Shown here: piece after piece, positions 1,662 to 30,844 of the stretch | Layout of the letters: each line of letters starts with the position of its first letter | Position numbering within the stretch: position 1 is the stretch's first letter | DNA from: Microcoleus vaginatus GB1-A2 | GTDB taxonomy: Bacteria; Cyanobacteriota; Cyanobacteriia; Cyanobacteriales; Microcoleaceae | Assembly (NCBI GenBank): GCA_040004015.1 | Contig: JAMPKS010000051.1 | Location: forward strand, 1 to 32,000 | Length of the DNA stretch: 32,000 nt | Direction: 5' to 3' | The notes under the pieces: model-generated | What the model saw: only the letters and a program-made list of their open reading frames with translations | What the model was told of the DNA's origin: nothing | Database searches by the model: none | Position numbers and translations under genes: made by a program

Positions 1662-2450
1662 TTAATCTCGCAATCCCCGATCGCGCAACAAAGCATCTGC
1701 CCAAGCTGCATCTGTTTCCGAGAGTGGCGGTACTGATGGCCTATTATAATCTATCTCCATATCGTAACCTGCAATATCATATATTCCATTGAACAGCATT
1801 TGCAAATCAACAACAGGCTCAGGATCTTCTGAACGCAAAGGCAACGGGAAAGAAGGAATTACATTCTGAATATTAAAAGCATATAAATCACCGCGAGGAC
1901 GGCGGTTGCCGCGACACACCAAAATGCGATAGTGACTCTCAATGTTATTGCCAACAATTGGCATGGGTTCCCCATTTCGCAGTAAATCAATTTCTATTAA
2001 ATGAGTGCGGGTACTTAGTACCTGTTGGCGTTTTTCTTCATACATCTGCCGTCCTTTACCAGAACGCTTATTAGTGGGTGAAACAATTTCAATCGCTGTT
2101 ATTACTTCTCTGGTTTCCACCTGTTTAATTTCTAAATAAGCTTCTTTGATAATCTCAGGAACAGGAATTGTCACAGTCACTGGTTGTGTTGGGGGTAATA
2201 AAACAGCCACATTCGGCATTGAAGGATTGCTGGCGTTTGCCAAACGCTGTACCGTTATATCTGGAATACCAACACTCACAGAACTTTCCCCGCTGGTTTC
2301 ATACATTCGCACTTCTACCGCGACTCGATATTTAGGCCGCAGTTGGGGAGATAAAAATCTTGCAATTTCACTAATCAGCAAGTTATGTATCCCAGGCCAA
2401 AAGTCGGGATGCTCTAAATACGGGTCCATTCCAGGAAAGGGAGATGGCAT
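1662..2450 (-). CDS. DUF4058 family protein
   Basis: The N-terminus MPSPFPGMDPYLEHPDFWPGIHNLLI is the hallmark start of the cyanobacterial DUF4058 family. AAGGAG lies 8 nt upstream of ATG 2450, so the track start at 2471 is probably too long. Confidence 0.85.
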   Translation of the reverse strand: MPSPFPGMDPYLEHPDFWPGIHNLLISEIARFLSPQLRPKYRVAVEVRMYETSGESSVSVGIPDITVQRLANASNPSMPNVAVLLPPTQPVTVTIPVPEIIKEAYLEIKQVETREVITAIEIVSPTNKRSGKGRQMYEEKRQQVLSTRTHLIEIDLLRNGEPMPIVGNNIESHYRILVCRGNRRPRGDLYAFNIQNVIPSFPLPLRSEDPEPVVDLQMLFNGIYDIAGYDMEIDYNRPSVPPLSETDAAWADALLRDRGLRD

Positions 2451-2579
2451 TGATGTGACTCCTTGACTCAACTCTATTTATAGTTTAGCAATGTTGTTTT
2501 GGGAAAATTAGGGGCGATCGCACTTCCGGTAAAATAGAATAATTCCTATTTGTGGAAGGGCGATCGCACTTTTTAACGC

Positions 2580-2922: not shown

Positions 2923-2936
2923 GATACGTTCGTATC
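2923..2936. promoter_or_regulatory. Palindrome GATACG-TT-CGTATC, candidate operator
   Basis: Perfect 6-bp inverted arms lie 17 bp upstream of the first HTH gene start, inside an AT-rich stretch (aatttgataatattaatctt). Confidence 0.3.
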
Positions 2937-2952
2937 GGCTGTCAAGTGCAAG

Positions 2953-3165
2953 ATGGGTATAATTCGGTTGCGGGTTCGAGAACTAGCTGAGGAAAAGGGT
3001 TGGACGCTTAAAGAAGTTTCTGAGCGATCGGGCATTCCTTACAGTACCGTGAGAAGTTATGCCCATTCTCCCAAGCTGGCAACGGTAGATTACACAGCTT
3101 TAAACAAAATGGCTCGCGTGTTTGATATTGCGATCGAAGATTTAGTTGAGATTTTGGAAGAGTAG
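2953..3165 (+). CDS. Cro/C1-type (HTH_26-like) helix-turn-helix protein, copy 1 of 3
   Basis: 70 aa, MGIIRLRVRELAEEKGWTLKEVSERSGIPYSTVRSYAHSP... It has the typical XRE-family helix 2 / turn / helix 3 pattern. Confidence 0.85.
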   Translation: MGIIRLRVRELAEEKGWTLKEVSERSGIPYSTVRSYAHSPKLATVDYTALNKMARVFDIAIEDLVEILEE

Positions 3166-3185
3166 GCTGATTTTTTGCTGGGAAT

Positions 3186-3398
3186 ATGGGACGAATTAGG
3201 CTGCGAGTTAGAGAATTTGCTCAAGAGAAGGCTTGGAATCTGACAGAAGTATCCAACAGAACAGGTATTCCATATACCACGATCGTTACCTATGCCAATT
3301 CTCCAGGCATGGCTACCGTTGACTACACAGCTTTGGACAAGATTGCCCGTGCGTTCGATATTGCGATCGAAGATTTAGTTGAGATTTTGGAACAATAA
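3186..3398 (+). CDS. Cro/C1-type helix-turn-helix protein, copy 2 of 3
   Basis: 70-aa paralog, about 73 percent identical to copy 1 by manual alignment, and exactly 233 bp downstream of copy 1. Confidence 0.85.
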   Translation: MGRIRLRVREFAQEKAWNLTEVSNRTGIPYTTIVTYANSPGMATVDYTALDKIARAFDIAIEDLVEILEQ

Positions 3399-3418
3399 AC
3401 TGATTTGTCAGCGAGAAG

Positions 3419-3631
3419 ATGGGGCTAATACGGTTGCGAGTTCGAGAACTAGCTGAGGAAAAGGGTTGGACGCTGAAAGAAGTCTCTGACAGAACGGGAA
3501 TTCCCTACAGCACGGTTAAAAAATACGCCCAAGCTCCCAAAATGGCAACGGTGGACTATACGGCTTTGCAGAAACTTGCTGCTGTCTTCGATTTGATGAT
3601 CGAAGATTTGGTTGAGGTTTTGGAAAATTAA
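3419..3631 (+). CDS. Cro/C1-type helix-turn-helix protein, copy 3 of 3
   Basis: 70-aa paralog, about 79 percent identical to copy 1 by manual alignment, and exactly 233 bp downstream of copy 2. Confidence 0.85.
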   Translation: MGLIRLRVRELAEEKGWTLKEVSDRTGIPYSTVKKYAQAPKMATVDYTALQKLAAVFDLMIEDLVEVLEN

Positions 3632-3745
3632 GCTTAGGACTTACGCACGGGTGGTCAGAAACCGGGTTTTTTTGCATCAGACTTCGTTACAGCCCGCCGA
3701 TTCGGTAAAAAAACCGGTTTCGAGGAGTCGGAGTGCGTCGAAAAC
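3632..3745. mobile_element. MITE-like element, copy A
   Basis: Its termini ggacttacgcacgggtggtcagaaaccgggttttttt and aaaaaaaccggtttcgaggagtcggagtgcgtc are inverted. The core acttcgttacagcccgc is shared with copy B. It has no coding capacity. Confidence 0.6.
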
Positions 3746-3845
3746 AAACTGATTTGTCGCTCTTTGCAGTAAAAAAATATGAATATTGGAATTTTCCGGC
3801 TGTAAACTAAAGTCAGGAGTTTTTCAGTCTGCCGGAGTTATATCA

Positions 3846-4337
3846 ATGCCGATCGATCACCTGTCTGACGTGGAAGGGAACTTGGAAGATCTGAAAGAGC
3901 AATTAGTGGGCAAGGTAAAGGCTCTAAATTTAGCACCGCAAGAAGAAAAGATCCGAATTAAACAGCAAATCCGAGAGCTACGCAAGGAGATTCGGGAGCA
4001 GGAAGAGGAGTATTGGCAGGTTCTCGCTCAGCAAACGAAAACGGTGGAAATTCCCGAACATGAGGCTGAGATTATTGTTGCCGAGATTGTCGAAGAAGTT
4101 GGGCAAATTGAAGTGCAGGGACAGTATTCAGATGAAGTGCTTCAGATTTTGCAGGAGATTCGGGACAAGCTAAACCAACCGGGAGCAACAGCGGCCGCGA
4201 AACTTAAAGGCGTAATCTCAAGCATTCCGCCGTTTGTGGGAATTTCCTACGAGGCTGAATTGGATACAGAGAATTTTTTCCAGCGGCATTTCCCAACGTT
4301 TCGGAAGTGGGCTAAGGTATTAGCAAAAAAGTCCTAG
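3846..4337 (+). CDS. Coiled-coil protein (163 aa), probably the N-terminal module of the downstream STAND NTPase
   Basis: GGAG lies 8 nt upstream of ATG 3846, so the track start 3786 is unlikely. There is a charged heptad-like stretch EEKIRIKQQIRELRKEIREQEEEYW. The ORF ends GCA AAA AAG TCC TAG. Confidence 0.65.
   Translation: MPIDHLSDVEGNLEDLKEQLVGKVKALNLAPQEEKIRIKQQIRELRKEIREQEEEYWQVLAQQTKTVEIPEHEAEIIVAEIVEEVGQIEVQGQYSDEVLQILQEIRDKLNQPGATAAAKLKGVISSIPPFVGISYEAELDTENFFQRHFPTFRKWAKVLAKKS
4325..4331 (+). other. A_AAA_AAG heptamer in X_XXY_YYZ phase (candidate -1 frameshift or homopolymer indel site)
   Basis: Zero-frame codons are GCA(4323) AAA(4326) AAG(4329) TCC TAG. The -1 frame from 4331 (GTC CTA GAC...) is the frame of the NB-ARC ORF. 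Confidence 0.45.
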
Positions 4338-4441
4338 ACCGGGAGCGAAAAACACTTAATCCAGGTTTCACAAGTTTTTACCAACTATACGATATTCCCT
4401 CGGAACTCGGTTCAAAAAACTTTGTCGGACGGGATGAGGAA

Positions 4442-6874
4442 ATGCAGCAGTTGCACGGATTGTTGCAGGATGGAAGCCGCGTTGCCATTGCCGCTGCGTC
4501 GGGAATGGGCGGCATCGGCAAGACAGAATTGGTATGGCAGTATGCAACTTTTCACCGCGAACACAACACCTATCCAGCAGGGATTTGGTGGCTGTTTGTG
4601 CGGGACAACGATTTAGCGCCGCAGGTGTTGCAGAAAGCGCTGCGAATGGGAATTCAGCCGCCGGATACTCTCGACAATCTGGAGGAACGGTTGCAGTTTT
4701 GCTACGAAGAGTGGGCAAAACAAACCTCTGGCAATGCTCTGCTGGTATTGGATGATGTCAACGATTACCGCGCGGTGCAGCGGTTGCTGCCGAGAAATCC
4801 CCGCTTTAAGGTGTTGCTGACTGCGCGACAGCGACTGGAAGAAAAAACCGTGCAGCGATTGGATTTAAAGAAGCTCAGACCCTTGGATGCTTTCAAGTTA
4901 CTGTATGAAGTTAGTCAGGCAGAGACTCGCATTGTTCAGGAACAGATTGTTGCTGAACAATTGTGTGCTTGGTTGGAGTATTTGCCCTTGGGGATTGAAC
5001 TGGTGGCAACCTTTCTCAAGGTAGAGCCAGATGTGTCGGTAGCAGAGTTATTGGCACAGTTGCAGCAAAAGCTGTTGCAGGATGAGGTGCTGACTCCTGT
5101 AGCGGCGGCTTTTGAGTTAAGTTGGGTGCAGTTAAATGCTGCCGAACAGCAGTTGGCGGTATTGCTGAGTGTGTTTGCTTTGGCTCCCATGCCTTGGCAG
5201 TTGGTGGAGTCAGTGGTCGTAGTTTGTAGAGTAGAAGCCCCAAAGCAAAACTGGCTGAAGAAATTGTTTGTGGTGTGGGGAAAGGTGCAAGCACCTCAGC
5301 AGTGGTGTTTGCTACTGGACGATCGGGTTTTGAGCCAGAGTCGGCGGCGTTTGGTGGAGTTGAGTTTGCTGGGGCGCGTGGAGCAAAAGCAGTATCAACT
5401 TCATGCTTTGATTCGGGAGTTTTTTGCAGCCAAATTGCAGGGATACGCCGATGCTGAGAATTTGCGGAGAAGTTTTGCGGTGGTGCTGACAGCGGTGGCA
5501 AAGACGATTCCGCAGACTGTGACGCTGGAGGTGCAGCAACGGGTGAAGGAGGCGCTGCCCCATTTGGAGGTGGTGGCGGAACAATGGTCGCATTTGCTGG
5601 AAGATAGCACTGATGCTATGGGGTCTTTCACAGTCTTAGCGCGGGTTGCCCAGGGGCAGAGTTTGTGGGCAGAGGCGGAGAAATGGTATCAAGCTTGCCT
5701 GCAGATGACGGAGGAACGCTACGGAGCCGATCGTCCCGATACGGCAACGAGTTTGAACAATCTGGCAGAGCTATACCGTGCAATGGGACGCTACCCGGAA
5801 GCAGAACCCTTGTATGTGCGATCACTTTCTATCCGTGAGCAACAGCTCGGAGCCGATCGTCCCGATACGGCAATGAGTTTGAACAATCTGGCATTACTGT
5901 ACGGTGAAATGGGACGCTATCCGGAGGCAGAACCATTGTTAGTGCGATCGCTCTCGATCTCGGAGCAGCAGCTCGGAGCCGATCATCCCCATACGGCATT
6001 GGGTTTGAACAATCTGGCAGAGCTATACCGTGCAATGGGTCGCTACCCGGAGGCGGAGCCCTTGCTCGTGCGATCGCTCTCGATCCGTGAGCAACAACTC
6101 GGAGCCGATCATCCCAATACGGCAACGAGTTTGAACAATCTGGCAAATCTATACAATGCAATGGGACGCTACGCGGAGGCAGAACCCTTTTATGTGCGAT
6201 CGCTCTCTATCAACGAGCTGCTATTCGGAGCCGACGATCCTCATACGGCAACGAGTTTGAATAATCTGGCATTACTGTACGGTGAAATGGGAAGCTACCC
6301 GGAAGCGGAACCCTTATATGTGCGATCGCTCTCGATCAGGGAGCAACAGCTCGGAGCCGACCATCCCGATACGGCAGGCAGTTTGAACAATCTGGCAGAG
6401 CTATACCGTGCAATGGGACGTTACCAGGAGGCGGAACCCTTGTTAGTGCGATCGCTCTCTATCATGGAGCAGCAGCTCGGAGCCGACCATCCCCATACGG
6501 CAACGAGTTTGAACAGTCTGGCAGGGCTGTACTATGCAATGGGACCTTACCCGGAAGCCGAACCCTTGTTAGTGCGATCGCTTGCTATTAGGGAGCAGCA
6601 GCTCGGAGCCGACCATCCCGATACGGCAATAAGTTTAAACAATCTGGCAGAGCTATACTATGCAAGGGGTCGCTACCCGGAAGCGGAACCGCTTTACGTG
6701 AGAGCATTAAAAATCTTGTTTAACCGATTGGGAGAGAATCATCCCAACACCCAAAAAGTTTGGAGCAATTTCATTGATTGTCTCCAGCAGGCGATATCAA
6801 CGGGTCAAGACTCGCAGCTTTCCCAGCATCCAGCAACGCAAGCACTGCTTCAGCAACTTCGGGAGACGGAGTAG
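4442..6874 (+). CDS. NB-ARC (AP-ATPase) STAND NTPase with C-terminal TPR array
   Basis: Walker A GMGGIGKTE, Walker B LLVLDDVND, LLTAR (RNBS-B-like), YLPLGIEL (GLPL-like), then 8 full 42-aa TPR_10/12-type repeats. The reading frame is open from 4316 and encodes ...SELGSKNFVGRDEE upstream of ATG 4442 with no ATG/GTG/TTG, so the real N-terminus lies upstream. Confidence 0.9.
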   Translation: MQQLHGLLQDGSRVAIAAASGMGGIGKTELVWQYATFHREHNTYPAGIWWLFVRDNDLAPQVLQKALRMGIQPPDTLDNLEERLQFCYEEWAKQTSGNALLVLDDVNDYRAVQRLLPRNPRFKVLLTARQRLEEKTVQRLDLKKLRPLDAFKLLYEVSQAETRIVQEQIVAEQLCAWLEYLPLGIELVATFLKVEPDVSVAELLAQLQQKLLQDEVLTPVAAAFELSWVQLNAAEQQLAVLLSVFALAPMPWQLVESVVVVCRVEAPKQNWLKKLFVVWGKVQAPQQWCLLLDDRVLSQSRRRLVELSLLGRVEQKQYQLHALIREFFAAKLQGYADAENLRRSFAVVLTAVAKTIPQTVTLEVQQRVKEALPHLEVVAEQWSHLLEDSTDAMGSFTVLARVAQGQSLWAEAEKWYQACLQMTEERYGADRPDTATSLNNLAELYRAMGRYPEAEPLYVRSLSIREQQLGADRPDTAMSLNNLALLYGEMGRYPEAEPLLVRSLSISEQQLGADHPHTALGLNNLAELYRAMGRYPEAEPLLVRSLSIREQQLGADHPNTATSLNNLANLYNAMGRYAEAEPFYVRSLSINELLFGADDPHTATSLNNLALLYGEMGSYPEAEPLYVRSLSIREQQLGADHPDTAGSLNNLAELYRAMGRYQEAEPLLVRSLSIMEQQLGADHPHTATSLNSLAGLYYAMGPYPEAEPLLVRSLAIREQQLGADHPDTAISLNNLAELYYARGRYPEAEPLYVRALKILFNRLGENHPNTQKVWSNFIDCLQQAISTGQDSQLSQHPATQALLQQLRETE
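5741..6748 (+). repeat. Eight tandem 126-bp units encoding the TPR array
   Basis: Units start at 5741, 5867, 5993, 6119, 6245, 6371, 6497 and 6623. Long stretches are identical at DNA level, e.g. ggcagagctataccgtgcaatggg recurs. Confidence 0.9.
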
Positions 6875-6911
6875 CTGTTGCTGCTAGAGCGATTGTTGCC
6901 AATTTCCTACA

Positions 6912-7015
6912 AAACTTACGCATGGGGTCCAGAAACCGGGTTTTTTCGAGAATACTTCGTTACAGCCCGCAGATAATGCAAAAAACCCGGTTTCTCTGAC
7001 GAAGCGCATAAGTCC
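6912..7015. mobile_element. MITE-like element, copy B (same orientation as copy A)
   Basis: It reads cttacgcatggggtccagaaaccgggtttttt ... aaaaaacccggtttctctgacgaagcgcataagtcc and shares the core acttcgttacagcccgc with copy A. Confidence 0.6.
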
Positions 7016-7058
7016 AGATCGCATTAAAAAGAGATAAGTTGCGATTTTTCGTTTGGTG

Positions 7059-7115
7059 GGGGCGGGTTTTTGAGATTGTCTATCTGTGTCATAAAGGGTT
7101 GGAAAAACCCGCCCC
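7059..7115. repeat. Long-loop inverted repeat ggggcgggttttt / aaaaacccgcccc
   Basis: Perfect 13-bp arms (7059-7071 and 7103-7115) with a 31-nt loop lie between the convergent STAND gene and ubiD. It could be a terminator or a small palindromic element. Confidence 0.35.
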
Positions 7116-7165
7116 TAGAGGTCGATCGAGGATGTGCGATATGTCAGATTTTAGGGTTGATTCCC

Positions 7166-8674
7166 CTACTTCATCTCATATCCAAACAAATTCGGATCGA
7201 CTTCTCCCAAATTCAAATCAGCCAAACCATACTCAGCCCAACGCCTTTCTACCATCGCCGCCACATCCGGATCGGACTCCAAAACTTCCCCCCATTCATG
7301 ATCGGTTTCCGGCGGCATCTTCGTAGTAGCATCAATCCCCATTCTGCCTCCCAAACCAATCTTTTCACTGGCAAAATCTAACGTATCAAAAGGCGTATTC
7401 GGCAGAATAAAAACATCCCGAACCGGATCGACTTTAGAACTAATTGCCCAAACTACTTGACGCGGGTCGCGAATGTTGATACTTTTATCCACAACAATCA
7501 CAAACTTAGTGTAAGTAAACTGCGGTAATGCACTCCAAAATGCTAAAGCAGCCCTGCGCGCTTGACCGGGATATGCTTTATCAATCGAGATAATTGCGGC
7601 CTTATAACTCAGGGCTTCCATCGGTAAGAAGAAATCGACAATTTCCGATACTTGCTGCCGCAAAATAGGCGTATAAATACGGTTAAGCGCGATCGCCATC
7701 ATTGCTTCTTCTTTCGGCGGCCGCCCGCTAAATGTCGTCAGATAAATCGGGTCTTTGCGGTGCGTCATGCAGTGGAATCGCACCAACGGCGAATCTTCCA
7801 CGCCGCCGTAATAACCCATGTGATCCCCGAAGGGCCCGTCGGGCAGAACTTCCCCCGGCGTAATCGTTCCTTCTAACACAATTTCCGAGTCCGCCGGTAC
7901 TTCCAAATCTACGGTTTTGCACTTGGCCAATTGCACGCCGGAACCGCCGTAAAGTCCGGCAAATAACCATTCCGATAAATCTACAGGAATTGGGGTTGCT
8001 GCGGCGAGAATAATCAGGGGATCGACTCCAAGGGCGATCGCAACTTCCAACTTTTTACCAGCCTGCGCCGCTTTCCGCAAGTGCCGCGCGCCGCCCCGCA
8101 CCGATAACCAGTGTACAGTCATCGTGTTTTTTGACTGCAACTGCAACCGATAAACCCCCACATTCGGCGTGCCCGTTTCGCAATCTTTGGTAATTACCAA
8201 ACCCAGGGTGATAATTTTGCCGGCATCTCCCGAATAAGGGCGAATCATCGGGATTTTGTTCAAATCCACCCCTTCTCCCTCAAATACCACTTGCTGACAA
8301 GCTGGGAAAAAGTCGCGGCCCGGTTTAGCCTTCACTACGTCAAACAGCACTTTGCCGAATTCTATCGCTTGGGAAATCTTTTTCGGCGGTTTTGGCTGTT
8401 GCAGCATTCCCAGTTTTTTGCCGAGCTCTTCTAGTTCGATCGGCTTTTCCATGTTCATCGCCCAGCAAACCCGCTGTTCCGTACCCAAGAGGTTAATGGC
8501 GACGGGGAAATCTGCCCCTTTGACGTTTTCAAACAGCAGTCCAGGGCCGCCTTTTTGCAGCATTTGGTTGGAAATTTCGGCAATTTCGAGGTCGGAATCG
8601 ACTAAGGCGCTAATCCGGCGCAGTTGTCCCCGTTCTTCAAGTAGTTTTAGGAATCCCCGCAAGTCTCTAGCCAT
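7166..8674 (-). CDS. ubiD: UbiD-family (4-hydroxy-3-polyprenylbenzoate) decarboxylase
   Basis: 502 aa. It resembles UbiD across its full length (MARDLRGFLKLLEERGQL..., GPFGDHMGYY, RVVWAISSKVDP). Confidence 0.9.
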   Translation of the reverse strand: MARDLRGFLKLLEERGQLRRISALVDSDLEIAEISNQMLQKGGPGLLFENVKGADFPVAINLLGTEQRVCWAMNMEKPIELEELGKKLGMLQQPKPPKKISQAIEFGKVLFDVVKAKPGRDFFPACQQVVFEGEGVDLNKIPMIRPYSGDAGKIITLGLVITKDCETGTPNVGVYRLQLQSKNTMTVHWLSVRGGARHLRKAAQAGKKLEVAIALGVDPLIILAAATPIPVDLSEWLFAGLYGGSGVQLAKCKTVDLEVPADSEIVLEGTITPGEVLPDGPFGDHMGYYGGVEDSPLVRFHCMTHRKDPIYLTTFSGRPPKEEAMMAIALNRIYTPILRQQVSEIVDFFLPMEALSYKAAIISIDKAYPGQARRAALAFWSALPQFTYTKFVIVVDKSINIRDPRQVVWAISSKVDPVRDVFILPNTPFDTLDFASEKIGLGGRMGIDATTKMPPETDHEWGEVLESDPDVAAMVERRWAEYGLADLNLGEVDPNLFGYEMK

Positions 8675-8857
8675 TTTTTTTAAGAATTGTTAACGTTCTT
8701 TTGTTATTATGAGCCGATCGACTGCCACAATTTACTCCTGAACCGCTCAAAAGATACGTATTTAACGAACCGCGAAGACGCCAAGGGCGCGAAGGAAGAG
8801 AAAGAAGAAGATAGGTAATGCCTTGTTCGGTTCGGGAGTAGGTTGCATAATGGGTTA

Positions 8858-10294
8858 ATGAAATGTCCTCGATGCGAATCTGACCAAGTTCGTAAAAACG
8901 GCCGTCCCAAGGGGCACCAGCGGTATCTTTGCAAAGCTTGCCGCAAACATTTTTTTGAGCAGTTGAGTCCGCAGTCTTTCACTCGCAAATGCACTGAAAC
9001 ACGGTTAAGCGAAGCTATCCCGAAGGAAATCGCCCCTGCAACCACCACAGAGTCCGGCGGGATTGCGATTTTGCTGTTAGATGCCGAAAATCTGAAACTT
9101 AAGGTTAATACAGAACAATTCTTAGCCAGTTTGTGCGACTATCCCCTGCAAGTTAAAATTGCTTTTGCTAACTGGAAAAACCCGAGTATGGGCAAGTTGG
9201 ATGCTGAACTTTACGATCGCGGTTATGAACTGATTCACGTTCCGGGCGGTGCTAATAGTGCTGATGGTAAAATGATTGCTTTTGGCGCTGCTATTTTATA
9301 TAGATATCGGGATGTGCGACAAGTTTTTGTCTGTTCTTCCGATGGTTTGTTAAATCATCTTTGCAATCAGTTGCAAAATCAGGGATTGACTGTGTTTCGG
9401 GTGCGTCGGCAAAATTCGGTTTTGTCTGTTGAAAATCCTCGGACTGGTGATAGTCATCACTATTCCTGTGAGAGGGAAATAGAAATCCCTAGTTTTGAGG
9501 AATTGGCTAATCAAGTTGCAGAGTTGTTGAAGGCTGAACACAAATCTATTGATGAGCGAATAGCTCGTTTTTCTACTGTGGCTGAGCTTTTTCAAGAGCG
9601 CCGAACTGTTGCTTTCAATTCTACAACTTCCCCTGCAGCAGCACTGTCGCAGTCAGCACAAAACGAAGTTACCCCGGTGTCTGAAGCATCTTTGGCGACC
9701 GTTGCTTTTAATCAAAATGTTGCGGAGAAAAACTTGCCAGAAATAATACCTGGTCTCAATTCAAATGCTATTGAGTCGCTGGATGTTTTAAAAAATATAC
9801 TTGTAGAAATAATTGAAGCTGCCAAAAAGGAATTAAAAGAGGATGCTATTCCTCTGCTAAAAATTAAGAAAGTTTTTTGGGCTAAGTATCAATCTCATGC
9901 TGATTTAGTTGTGAAAAAGTTTTTGGGTGAAAAATCCAGTTTAATCAAATATTTGCAGTCGGAATCTGGGGTTTTTGAAGTAAAATTAATCGACCAGAAA
10001 CATCAAGTGGCGCTCGTCACCAAAAAATCTTCCACTTCAAAAACTCATTCCTCTGCTGCCCTGGAAGCATCTGTAGTCAAAATTGTCAAAGGATTAACTG
10101 CTCAATCTCCCGGGAGCTATATTCCGATTAGCCAGGTTGCCAGCGAATTTAATAAGTTATACAATCAACCAATTACTAAAAAACTGCAATCGATGAATTT
10201 GGGCAACAAGCTGATTAAATTTTTGCAGTCATGCAAAACATTTAAAATTAAGAAAAACGGTAAAATTTATGAAGTGGCGATCGCACTTCCCTAG
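8858..10294 (+). CDS. Zn-ribbon / NYN (LabA-like) domain / OST-HTH(LOTUS)-like protein
   Basis: MKCPRCESDQVRKNG...YLCKACRKHF gives a CxxC...CxxC zinc ribbon. The NYN core is IAILLLDAENL...FANW...GYELIHVP.GANSADGKM...VCSSD. C-terminal LOTUS-like modules are present (ISQVASEFNKLYNQPITKKLQSMNLGNKLIKFLQS). ATG 8858 is preferred over the TTG at 8843. Confidence 0.8.
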   Translation: MKCPRCESDQVRKNGRPKGHQRYLCKACRKHFFEQLSPQSFTRKCTETRLSEAIPKEIAPATTTESGGIAILLLDAENLKLKVNTEQFLASLCDYPLQVKIAFANWKNPSMGKLDAELYDRGYELIHVPGGANSADGKMIAFGAAILYRYRDVRQVFVCSSDGLLNHLCNQLQNQGLTVFRVRRQNSVLSVENPRTGDSHHYSCEREIEIPSFEELANQVAELLKAEHKSIDERIARFSTVAELFQERRTVAFNSTTSPAAALSQSAQNEVTPVSEASLATVAFNQNVAEKNLPEIIPGLNSNAIESLDVLKNILVEIIEAAKKELKEDAIPLLKIKKVFWAKYQSHADLVVKKFLGEKSSLIKYLQSESGVFEVKLIDQKHQVALVTKKSSTSKTHSSAALEASVVKIVKGLTAQSPGSYIPISQVASEFNKLYNQPITKKLQSMNLGNKLIKFLQSCKTFKIKKNGKIYEVAIALP

Positions 10295-16554: not shown

Positions 16555-17964
16555 ATGCCCGATCGAACTCCCTTGCTGGCGACTCAAGAATCTCCTGCAT
16601 TCAGCGCCATCAGTCGCTATATCGCTCAAACGCTAATTACCATTCAGGAACAGCATCCCGAATGGATAGCTGAAAAATACAGGAAAACCCCCTGGGCCAA
16701 ACCTGATTTTCAGTCTGTTTTGATTGGAAAATTGACAAAAAGTTTCACAGTAGCCAGCGATACAGATTCCCTGCTGCTGACTGCGAAAAAATATTTACAA
16801 ATTCTGCTGGTTCCAGAATTCGTTAATTCACCTCAATTCAGCAAATTATCTGCCAAAATTCACCAGCTAGCCCAATCTCAAACAGCACCAGCTAAATCAG
16901 AAAACTCAGTTTCGTCAGAACCTCCAACTCCAACAGCCAATCAACCAGCCCCGCTTCCTGTCGGCATTGCTATCTTGCTGCTAGATGTCGAAAACTTGCA
17001 ACTCACCATCGAAACCGAAAAATTCCTAGAGGGAATTTGCCACTATCCCATCCAAATCAAAGTTGCCTTTGCCAACTGGCGCAGCATGGGCAAAAAAGAT
17101 GCCGAATTTCACCAGCGCGGCTATCAACTAATTCACGTCCCCCCCGGCAAAGACAGCGCCGACTTAAAAATGGCTACAGTCGGCGCATCGATTTTCGTAC
17201 ATTATCCCACAGCCAAAGAGATTTTTGTCTGTTCGTCCGATCGCGCCCTCACTCACCTCAGCAACACACTGCAAGCCCACGGATTAACCGTATTTCAAGT
17301 CCGCAAACAAATAGATAAAATCATAGTTTTAAACAGCAAAACCGGACAAGTTGAAACCCATTCCCTCGTAACTATACCGGAAATTACACCCCTAGAACAA
17401 TTAGTTATTCAACTAAAAGAATTGATCAAAAAAGAGCAAAAACGCACCTCAACTCAGTGGATCAAACTTTCTACTGTTTCAGCTTTATTTAGGGAAAATT
17501 ACGGCTTAGTCCTAAATCAAGTTGTTTCTCATCATTTGCTCGGCACTAAAACCAGGGATATCTTTCTAAAATATCCCACCGATTTTGCCCTCCACAAACC
17601 CTCCGAAACTTCTCAAACTTATGTCACTCTTTTTGAAGTCAAACTGCCGCCCCCACCGCCAATACTTAACCAAGAAAATCTAAATAACCACCAGGCAGCA
17701 CCTGCGAAGTTGACAGATATTAATTCTCTGGAAGACTTGGAAAGAGCTCTTGTTAAAATCGTTGGCGACTTAACCGGCAACTCTCCTGAAAATTCTGTAT
17801 TTCTATCCAATGTAGGCAGCGAATTTCACAGACAATACGGCAAACAAATTACCCAAATAATTAAAGATTTTAATCTCGGTAGAAAATTTACTAAATTTTT
17901 GCAATCCTGCGCTTCTCTCCAGCTAAAAAAAGCCGAAAAAGGCTGGCAAGTTTCCCTCAATTAA
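16555..17964 (+). CDS. NYN (LabA-like) / OST-HTH(LOTUS)-like protein, paralog of 8858..10294
   Basis: The NYN core GIAILLLDVENL...FANW...GYQLIHVPPGKDSADLKM...VCSSD aligns with the first paralog along its length. The C-terminal module is LSNVGSEFHRQYGKQITQIIKDFNLGRKFTKFLQS. It has no zinc ribbon. Confidence 0.8.
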   Translation: MPDRTPLLATQESPAFSAISRYIAQTLITIQEQHPEWIAEKYRKTPWAKPDFQSVLIGKLTKSFTVASDTDSLLLTAKKYLQILLVPEFVNSPQFSKLSAKIHQLAQSQTAPAKSENSVSSEPPTPTANQPAPLPVGIAILLLDVENLQLTIETEKFLEGICHYPIQIKVAFANWRSMGKKDAEFHQRGYQLIHVPPGKDSADLKMATVGASIFVHYPTAKEIFVCSSDRALTHLSNTLQAHGLTVFQVRKQIDKIIVLNSKTGQVETHSLVTIPEITPLEQLVIQLKELIKKEQKRTSTQWIKLSTVSALFRENYGLVLNQVVSHHLLGTKTRDIFLKYPTDFALHKPSETSQTYVTLFEVKLPPPPPILNQENLNNHQAAPAKLTDINSLEDLERALVKIVGDLTGNSPENSVFLSNVGSEFHRQYGKQITQIIKDFNLGRKFTKFLQSCASLQLKKAEKGWQVSLN

Positions 17965-30728: not shown

Positions 30729-30844
30729 TTAGGGCTTACGAACGGGTGTTCAGAAACCGGGTTTTTCAACCCAAATACTTGCTTAAAACCCTCAATCTCG
30801 GTTAGAAAACCCGGTTTATTTGTGGGCGAGTGCCTAAGCCCTAA
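30729..30844. mobile_element. MITE-like element, copy C
   Basis: The perfect terminal inverted repeat TTAGGGCTTA...TAAGCCCTAA encloses cagaaaccgggttttt ... aaaacccggttt. The right end is 2 bp from the pseudogene ATG. Confidence 0.6.

Follow-up and report, generated by a model that had tools for sequence, protein, structure and literature searches.

A candidate −1 frameshift junction linking a small helical module to STAND NTPases and other partners in cyanobacteria

We analysed a 32,000-nucleotide stretch of DNA (hereafter the window), positions 1-32,000 of contig JAMPKS010000051.1 of Microcoleus vaginatus GB1-A2 (GCA_040004015.1), in which the locus of interest spans 2923-7015. The five co-directional open reading frames (ORFs) that an earlier note on this DNA had listed there, three small helix-turn-helix (HTH) genes followed by a helical module and an NB-ARC/TPR STAND NTPase, all lie where it had placed them (Table 1). 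The note had also suspected a recoding site between the last two, a suggestion now backed by the heptamer found at the junction, the geometry of the two frames and comparative data. We propose that the module ORF (3846-4337) and the NTPase ORF (4316-6874) are probably a single recoded gene, yielding a free module of 163 amino acids and a fusion of about 1009 residues. The narrower claim, a −1 shift on a run of adenines as the link between the two ORFs, is on comparative grounds quite probable.

At its 3′ end the module ORF reads GCA AAA AAG TCC TAG (4323-4337), which sets A_AAA_AAG in zero-frame phase. NB-ARC is encoded in the −1 frame, which a TAA at 4313-4315 closes and which then stays open from 4316 to 6874, with its first ATG, GTG or TTG at 4442, 37 codons past the slip site. 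The heptamer has the X_XXY_YYZ form of dnaX- and IS3-type −1 frameshift sites; it has the phase of the zero frame, and the long ORF lies in the −1 frame. Slippage by −1 is predicted to give the sequence ...LAKK-VLDRERK... across the junction, in a fusion of 162 + 847 residues.

Homologs of the module were gathered from NCBI, JGI, ENA and Logan and clustered at 90% identity. Nearly all are 163 amino acids long (more than 100 clusters); the short ORF's stop codon is conserved among them and is therefore not an assembly error. Homopolymer sequencing error is likewise ruled out, as the same reading is found in complete genomes and in hundreds of independent assemblies. For the junction itself we assembled 47 loci by a profile-guided scan (one genome per species, 12-sequence alignment) and added loci L001 and L054 and the window. 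In 42 loci there is a zero-frame A_AAA_AAG, one of its variants (A_AAA_AAA, and in a single locus A_AAA_AAC) or a run of nine to ten A's (A9-A10), with 30 A6 runs and 10 A9 runs; the Nostocales sites are A9-A10 runs. The zero-frame stop follows the heptamer within 0-3 codons in 41 of the 42, the exception being L021 with 11 codons. The −1 ORF is at least 400 codons long in 36 (437-1258 codons), runs to the contig end in two and is short in four. In most loci the −1 frame opens just 13-25 nucleotides (nt) ahead of the stop of the zero frame. The loci are drawn from Microcoleus, Stenomitos, Leptolyngbya, Elainella, Argonema, Coleofasciculus, Symploca, Caldora, Lyngbya, Anabaena, Nostoc, Stigonema and several metagenome-assembled genomes (MAGs), and include the complete genomes CP031705, CP170648 and NZ_CP178454.

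While module identity between genera is 38-62%, the slip site stays fixed at the nucleotide level. The codon before the lysine codons always ends in A (GCA in 26 loci, AAA in 11, CCA in three, GTA and CTA in one each), and this holds across five amino acids: Ala, Pro, Val, Leu and Lys. Background ORFs from these loci show the heptamer form in no more than 22% of their Lys-Lys dipeptides, a figure in which the module sites are still counted. In three genomes a single extra A has produced a natural in-frame fusion (L011 and L040, both A7, and L020, A10), and the peptides of these fusions align with the trans-frame products predicted for their relatives. Two in-frame module-STAND proteins are also on record: P0311 (nSTAND1) and P0380 (STAND-TPR).

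Several features of the −1 frame are evidence that it would be translated without a start codon of its own. In seven of the ten Nostocales loci the first ATG, GTG or TTG comes 111-264 codons past the slip site, beyond Walker A (codon 87-88), and the peptide from the slip site to that first start codon is well conserved. Microcoleus has 37 codons from the slip site to the first ATG, and from FTSFYQLYDIPSELGSKNFVGRDEE on these hardly vary. Their variable sites fall 5, 5 and 11 on the first, second and third positions of the −1 codons, a ratio repeated over the following 300 codons (70, 66 and 119).

Pfam assigns the −1 ORFs to several different families: NB-ARC-TPR in Microcoleus, Stenomitos, Leptolyngbya, Elainella and Argonema, NACHT in Coleofasciculaceae, Symploca and Caldora, nSTAND4 in Anabaena and Nostoc (Stigonema has loci much like these), nSTAND1-WD40 in Nostoc minutum and L046, and CHASE2 in L045. 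The conserved unit therefore consists of module and slip site, joined to varied partners. In L045 (6001-7709) the module, A_AAA_AAG and a 9-base-pair hairpin are followed in the −1 frame by the CHASE2 protein and not by a STAND NTPase. An OrfA/OrfB pair of the insertion sequence (IS) kind was considered and ruled out, the downstream ORFs being STAND NTPases.

We folded the 55 nt 3′ of the heptamer locus by locus. In most loci with six A's followed by G (A6G), a stem-loop begins 3-7 nt past the heptamer; in dnaX/IS3-type signals such a structure is expected at 5-9 nt. The Microcoleus stem (GACCUGGA...UCCAGGUU) has a free energy (ΔG) of −11.6 to −13.8 kcal/mol in eight of the ten relatives whose cassette is intact. 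Stems of unrelated sequence, 7-12 base pairs long (ΔG −13 to −23), stand at the same position in Stenomitos, Leptolyngbya, Elainella, Nostoc minutum and several MAGs. Individual stems are GGUCUCCCGAUC...GAUCGGGAGAC in L015 (ΔG −20.6), UUCCUCUGAU...AUCAGAGGAA in L033 (−14.0), GCUUCUCCUG...CAGGAGAAGC in L037 (−17.1), UUCCUCCGAUC...GAUCGGAGGA in L043 (−22.7) and GCCCCGAUGC...GUAUCGGGGC in L046 (−20.8), while L021, L024 and L047 have CCCUCGA...UCGAGGG (−13.9 in L024, −16.1 in L047). Stems that vary in sequence yet keep their position are the pattern that a frameshift stimulator would show. Upstream of the heptamer, AAGG or AGGTG motifs recur at a distance of 4-13 nt in most loci; the window's own motif lies 6-7 nt away. 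Whether such a Shine-Dalgarno (SD)-like motif, which in signals of the dnaX/IS3 type stands about 10-14 nt before the site, stimulates frameshifting is uncertain, and we give it little weight.

The module starts at ATG 3846, with a GGAG 8 nt 5′ of it; a TTG start at 3786 is unused by the homologs, which are 163 amino acids long. An AlphaFold2 model built on a 50-sequence alignment is all-alpha with eight helices (pLDDT 88.4, pTM 0.76). The earlier note had called this part a coiled-coil N-terminal module: that it is helical and non-enzymatic stands, while the coiled coil gives way to a predicted compact eight-helix bundle. The module has no match in Pfam, NCBIfam or PADLOC, its model finds nothing significant by Foldseek in the PDB (best E 0.8) or BFVD, and a hidden Markov model (HMM) profile of it finds nothing significant among PDB sequences. 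A BASS/amyloid motif at its C-terminus (...PPFVGISYEAELDTENF...KKS) was considered and rejected, since there is no G/N/Q-rich motif and no counterpart on the NTPase. An exhaustive HMMER search for the wider family gave 216 cluster representatives at 50% identity, mostly stand-alone proteins of about 165 amino acids, and about half of the listed representatives end in Lys-Lys plus 0-4 residues.

Elsewhere the module occurs C-terminal to TRADD-N, SEFIR/TIR, TIR_2, vWA, LRR-Roc-COR, NACHT-type STAND and SNF2 domains, and N-terminal to TPR, GUN4, periplasmic-binding, nSTAND1 and STAND-TPR domains. In L054 a TIR domain, the module, the frameshift and a STAND protein follow one another, with heptamer and hairpin intact. 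The module is thus a small non-enzymatic domain on a core NTPase, with other copies on effector and signalling domains, as in adaptors of the effector-associated domain (EAD) kind. This partner list is the repertoire of NTP-dependent conflict systems in multicellular bacteria and repeats the EAD principle, in which one copy sits on the NTPase and others on effectors (PMC7159879, PMC8195603). We therefore infer that the module may act as a homotypic adaptor, and that it would define an adaptor domain family linking STAND, TIR/SEFIR, TRADD-N, vWA and ROCO proteins. The 32-kb window holds no second copy of the module. In L053, on the same contig as L014 (Microcoleus sp. A006_D1), TRADD-N is fused before the module in a protein of 406 amino acids (3862-7706); this gene adjoins a CyanoTRADDas_TM gene and has kept the heptamer, while the downstream NTPase is lost.

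That the downstream product is an NB-ARC/TPR STAND NTPase with an N-terminal module, as the earlier note had it, agrees with the Pfam matches. NB-ARC is matched from about residue 40 onward in the open frame (E 7.2e-13; 48.8 bits, cut-off 23.5) and the Walker A motif is GMGGIGKT (about 4502-4525), which places the protein in the STAND NB-ARC (AP-ATPase) clade; the C-terminal repeat sensor matches TPR_12 (E 2.8e-147) and TPR_10 (E 4e-106). By sequence the closest solved structure is the NB-ARC of AfsR (8k60, E 5e-13). No Avs model of PADLOC matched; only its generic TPR model hit the NTPase (E 2e-12). The −1 ORFs of other strains often differ in length by steps of about 42 amino acids (847, 805, 843, 801, 927), so the number of TPR repeats changes quickly. 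Domain searches found no recognisable enzymatic effector among the five products, as the note had also remarked.

How might such a gene work? Most ribosomes would decode the zero frame, stop at TAG 4335 and release the 163-amino-acid helical module. A fraction would slip by −1 on A_AAA_AAG, probably aided by the stem-loop 4 nt downstream, and enter the NB-ARC/TPR frame. One mRNA would then have two outcomes, the module alone and the module fused to a sensor NTPase, in a ratio presumably set by the efficiency of frameshifting. Triggering of the TPR sensor might cause the NTPase to oligomerise and its N-terminal modules to cluster, and the cluster could recruit or nucleate the pool of free module together with effectors that are encoded elsewhere and bear the module (TIR, SEFIR, TRADD-N, vWA). 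The free module could instead buffer or damp spurious activation, or, more simply, the frameshift may just keep a dangerous protein scarce. We put this two-isoform adaptor mechanism forward tentatively. Equally provisional is its broader form: a portable recoding cassette of helical adaptor, A_AAA_AAG or A9 site and hairpin, carried in filamentous cyanobacteria by at least four STAND clades and CHASE2, through which a sensor would be made with a fixed excess of free adaptor for nucleated assembly or buffering, the stoichiometry being set by frameshift efficiency. It would be a bacterial counterpart to sensor-nucleated CARD/PYD polymerisation.

Two loci have a single in-frame stop in place of the shift. 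In L041 (6400-6640) a TAG separates the module from an NB-ARC ORF that has no start of its own, and in L054 (8253-9100) a TGA separates the TIR gene from another such ORF. These are candidate stop-codon readthrough versions of the two-isoform arrangement, or recent nonsense mutations, and they suggest that readthrough may serve the same purpose as frameshifting.

A number of points weigh against our reading. The frameshift is deduced from comparison of sequences, and the adaptor role from analogy of domain architecture. The window's own hairpin is weak (ΔG −6.9, z −0.36): at 4338-4343 it reads CCGGGA where most Microcoleus relatives have CCTGGA (T for G), and this mismatch raises ΔG from about −12 to −6.9 kcal/mol, so that strain GB1-A2 may frameshift less efficiently. 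Hairpins are also weak or missing in the NACHT group and in the A9 Nostocales loci. RNAalifold gave no consensus structure for a MAFFT alignment of 13 junctions because loop lengths differ, and covariation is described locus by locus, unscored. The SD-like motif lies nearer to the heptamer than the dnaX optimum of 10 nt. In Microcoleus, ATG 4442 sits just before the Pfam NB-ARC boundary and, for this genus alone, leaves room for a separate NTPase start. A tRNA-Lys(CUU), if carried by cyanobacteria, would lower slippage on AAG. Finally, the window protein matches none of EAD1-EAD11 in Pfam, and two of 50 family members match EAD9 weakly (best E 0.0029).

The two frames could also be joined during transcription, by an RNA polymerase that adds an A to part of the mRNA, with no ribosomal shift. 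We regard this as unlikely: in 30 loci, the window among them, the run is six A's and then a G, which is under the productive length (PMC1088944), and most of the A6G loci carry a downstream stem-loop at the spacing of ribosomal frameshifting. For the Nostocales loci, with their A9-A10 runs and weak or missing hairpins, transcriptional slippage is a realistic candidate, in place of the ribosomal shift or beside it. Slippage on A9 runs is productive in other bacteria (PMC1088944); such sites are known from Thermus dnaX and from IS elements of Nostoc PCC 7120 (PMC1088944, PMC3711429), and run length was correlated with slippage efficiency in reporter tests (PMC3711429).

Two ordinary adjacent genes of an operon, with the NTPase starting at ATG 4442 and acting in trans and the heptamer a by-product of a conserved Lys-Lys C-terminus, are what gene callers annotate (163 and 768 amino acids in L001, under 'hypothetical protein' names). 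The start of the Pfam NB-ARC match near ATG 4442 would suit such a pair, as would the known Bell/NLR pairs, in which a small upstream effector gene overlaps the NLR gene by a few bases (bioRxiv 10.1101/2020.01.06.895854). We nevertheless consider it very unlikely that the genes are separate. Most Nostocales loci have no start codon before Walker A, the 37 codons 5′ of the Microcoleus ATG are conserved and evolve as coding in the −1 frame, and in most loci that frame opens so shortly before the zero-frame stop. Separate genes would also have to accommodate the constraint on the preceding codon, whose third base is held whichever of five amino acids it encodes, the hairpins conserved at the site, and the one-A insertions that yield in-frame fusions in three genomes.

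Finally, the shift could be an event at the DNA level, with the locus a frameshifted pseudogene or a contingency locus made phase-variable by replication slippage on the A-run. The run does vary in length between genomes (A6, A7, A9, A10), in-frame variants occur, the −1 ORF is truncated in four loci and several loci are decayed (L010, L013, L014, L038, L048). However, the out-of-frame state is the rule (the 30 A6 and 10 A9 loci, and more than 100 metagenomic clusters of exactly 163 amino acids), and the downstream ORFs are still open over 437-1258 codons with coding-type substitution patterns. A run of six A's is too short for efficient replication slippage, and the conserved downstream hairpin would have no role. 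An origin at the DNA level is therefore highly improbable.

The proposed recoding resembles dnaX-type −1 frameshifting, as in E. coli dnaX (tau/gamma), IS3-family OrfA/OrfAB and phage tail G/GT, in its A_AAA_AAG heptamer, in the stem-loop predicted downstream of most A6G sites and perhaps in the recurrent purine-rich motif upstream, and in the two products with a common N-terminus that it would give, the long one requiring the shift as in IS3 and G/GT. The A9 variant has its parallel in Thermus dnaX (PMC3711429, PMC5009743). It differs in that the host gene is a STAND/NLR-like NTPase, the stop follows the site within 0-3 codons (in all loci but one), and the SD-like motif is closer. Frameshifting in copA, which gives CopA(Z) (PMC5009743), likewise derives a stand-alone N-terminal domain and a full multidomain protein from one gene; there the short product is the frameshift product, whereas here it would come from standard decoding.

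With the EADs of NTP-dependent conflict systems described by Kaur, Burroughs, Iyer and Aravind in 2020 and 2021 (PMC7159879, PMC8195603), the module shares its small, non-enzymatic alpha-helical character, its N-terminal place on STAND NTPases, its occurrence elsewhere beside TIR, SEFIR, TRADD-N, vWA and Roc-COR, and its enrichment in filamentous cyanobacteria. Unlike them it lacks an EAD1-11 Pfam match, and its second copy would be the zero-frame product of its own gene with no effector attached. The Bell-domain/NLR amyloid pairs of Dyrka et al. 2020 (bioRxiv 10.1101/2020.01.06.895854) also have a small gene directly upstream of, and overlapping, an NB-ARC/NACHT repeat gene in multicellular bacteria, and signalling has been proposed to pass through a sequence element common to the small protein and the NLR N-terminus. 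In our case the common element would be a whole 162-residue domain, which the long product would gain by recoding; neither a short G/N/Q-rich motif nor a shared amyloid motif is present, and the NLR ORF would lack a start of its own. AfsR-type and Apaf-1/plant-CNL-type proteins also place TPR repeats after NB-ARC, and the N-terminal domain here is neither SARP, CARD nor plant coiled coil.

Each ingredient is established by itself (STAND/NLR-like proteins with TPR sensors, adaptors of the EAD type, frameshift signals of the dnaX type); of their combination we found no report. Frameshifted STAND/NLR-like genes are the subject of no published report that we found, a prior listing in the RECODE or GeneTack databases being possible. 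The word 'frameshift' is absent from both Aravind-group surveys (PMC7159879, PMC8195603), and the combination is not described in the Bell/NLR amyloid paper, a 2026 STAND survey, a recoding review, the GeneTack analysis or a 2026 cyanobacterial RNA-structure screen. The supplements of Antonov et al. 2013 make no mention of Nostoc, Anabaena, TPR or NACHT clusters.

If the reading is right, it adds a widespread family to chromosomal recoding, and many cyanobacterial NLR-like genes are misannotated as a 'hypothetical protein' and an N-terminally truncated NTPase. To our knowledge, only a handful of cases of programmed frameshifting are known from bacterial chromosomes (dnaX, prfB, copA, csoS2, IS elements and prophage tail genes). 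The locus would also give a handle on signalling by N-terminal adaptors, with sensor-fused and free forms made in a fixed ratio from one mRNA, and introduce a new adaptor domain family linking STAND, TIR/SEFIR, TRADD-N, vWA and ROCO.

Table 1. Features of the locus in the Microcoleus vaginatus GB1-A2 window
Feature	Position	Strand	Description
ORF80	2580-2822	−	conserved, divergent partner of the HTH array
HTH1	2953-3165	+	70 amino acids, HTH_26
HTH2	3186-3398	+	70 amino acids, HTH_26
HTH3	3419-3631	+	70 amino acids, HTH_26
69-nt hairpin element, upstream copy	3653-3721	+	brackets the cassette
Module ORF (zero frame)	3846-4337	+	163-amino-acid module from ATG, predicted all-alpha
SD-like TAAGGT	4313-4318	+	purine-rich; 6-7 nt 5′ of heptamer; includes the TAA closing the −1 frame
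Slippery heptamer A_AAA_AAG	4325-4331	+	zero-frame codons GCA AAA AAG; 1 codon before TAG 4335-4337
−1 frame continuation	4331-6874	+	847 codons + stop: conserved linker, NB-ARC, TPR sensor
Stem-loop GACCGGGA...UCCAGGUU	4336-4368	+	begins 4 nt past heptamer; one mismatch weakens it
TPR array	5596-6777	+	eight overlapping 126-nt (42-amino-acid) units, ~85% mutual identity
69-nt hairpin element, downstream copy	6926-6994	+	52 nt past the NTPase stop

The three HTH genes upstream are 70-amino-acid Cro/C1 paralogs, as the earlier note had described them, and match HTH_26 above the cut-off of 22 bits (35.1, 35.4 and 38.4 bits; E 1.5e-9 to 1.6e-8). They are not a fixed trio: the array is a 233-bp tandem unit, with copies 73-79% identical in nucleotides, and varies between one and five copies among strains. 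Three HTH sequence types occur in an order that is shuffled between Microcoleus strains (3-1-2-2-3 in L002, 4543-5684), consistent with unequal crossing-over of the 233-bp unit.

The note had further raised the possibility that the HTH genes and the NTPase form one integrated system, the HTH proteins regulating the NTPase or acting as its partner. Across the 12 Microcoleus island loci that bear the cassette, the genes always lie side by side and point the same way. All Microcoleus loci with HTH genes and module belong to one syntenic island, however, and therefore represent one evolutionary event and not repeated co-occurrence; the association is limited to this island and this genus. Within it, the array persists without a cassette in L050, where ORF80 and two HTH genes are directly followed by UbiD, with no module or STAND gene. 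The 69-nt hairpin element, in some strains with about 1.1 kb of inserted DNA, separates HTH genes from module. Outside Microcoleus and its closest relatives no HTH homolog lies within 6 kb of the module loci (L013, L015-L047). HTH homologs elsewhere adjoin unrelated genes and keep ORF80: that of Symploca adjoins an acetyl-CoA-synthetase-like gene and no module/STAND cassette, and those of Geitlerinemataceae keep a divergent ORF80 homolog (60-68%) among Uma2, ParE and CHAT-TPR genes, again with no cassette. Gene-neighbourhood comparison thus found essentially no co-occurrence of HTH and NTPase homologs in other settings. An integrated system is improbable, and the tempting 'HTH plus STAND' candidate is removed as unsupported.

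The HTH array is best read, from these neighbourhoods, as part of a separate ORF80/HTH unit that shares a hypervariable island with the cassette. Within Microcoleus the HTH proteins may still regulate the cassette in cis. A caveat to their independence comes from L053, where two ORF80-HTH pairs flank the TRADD-N-module gene and the genomic context is another; some regional association of HTH genes and module within Microcoleus therefore exists, probably by segmental duplication.

The order of the island is the same in all Microcoleus loci with HTH genes and module: ABC transporter, DUF4058, ORF80 (minus strand), one to five HTH genes, cassette, UbiD and NYN. Identities are high for the ABC transporter (94-100%) and UbiD (98-100%), and range lower for DUF4058 (66-100%, sometimes duplicated), ORF80 (85-98%), the module (70-92%), NB-ARC (63-95%) and the NYN-domain protein (55-87%); the number of TPR repeats varies as well. 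ORF80 (80 amino acids) has no Pfam hit on record. Toward it points the best promoter-like match (2945-2916, minus strand, 10/12), whose spacer contains a perfect palindrome, GATACGTTCGTATC (2923-2936). In the window the other variable genes of the island, DUF4058 and NYN, lie at 1662-2471 (minus strand) and 8843-10294, and a distant paralog of the NYN protein (38%) at 16555-17964.

An Rfam search of the whole window gave no match. A simple terminator scan found none between HTH3 and the module; its sole hit falls within the NTPase ORF, and hits are fewer than shuffled sequence would lead one to expect. The 69-nt hairpin element (AGAAACCGGGTTTTTT...AAAAAACCCGGTTTCT) has arms of 15-16 nt and a loop of about 33 nt. 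The two copies that bracket the cassette are direct repeats with 75% identity, a third copy lies 24 kb away at 30752-30819, and L050, which has no cassette, lacks the element at this site. Possible identities are a repeat of the miniature inverted-repeat transposable element (MITE) or repetitive extragenic palindromic (REP) kind, a terminator, or a recombination site for gain and loss of the cassette.

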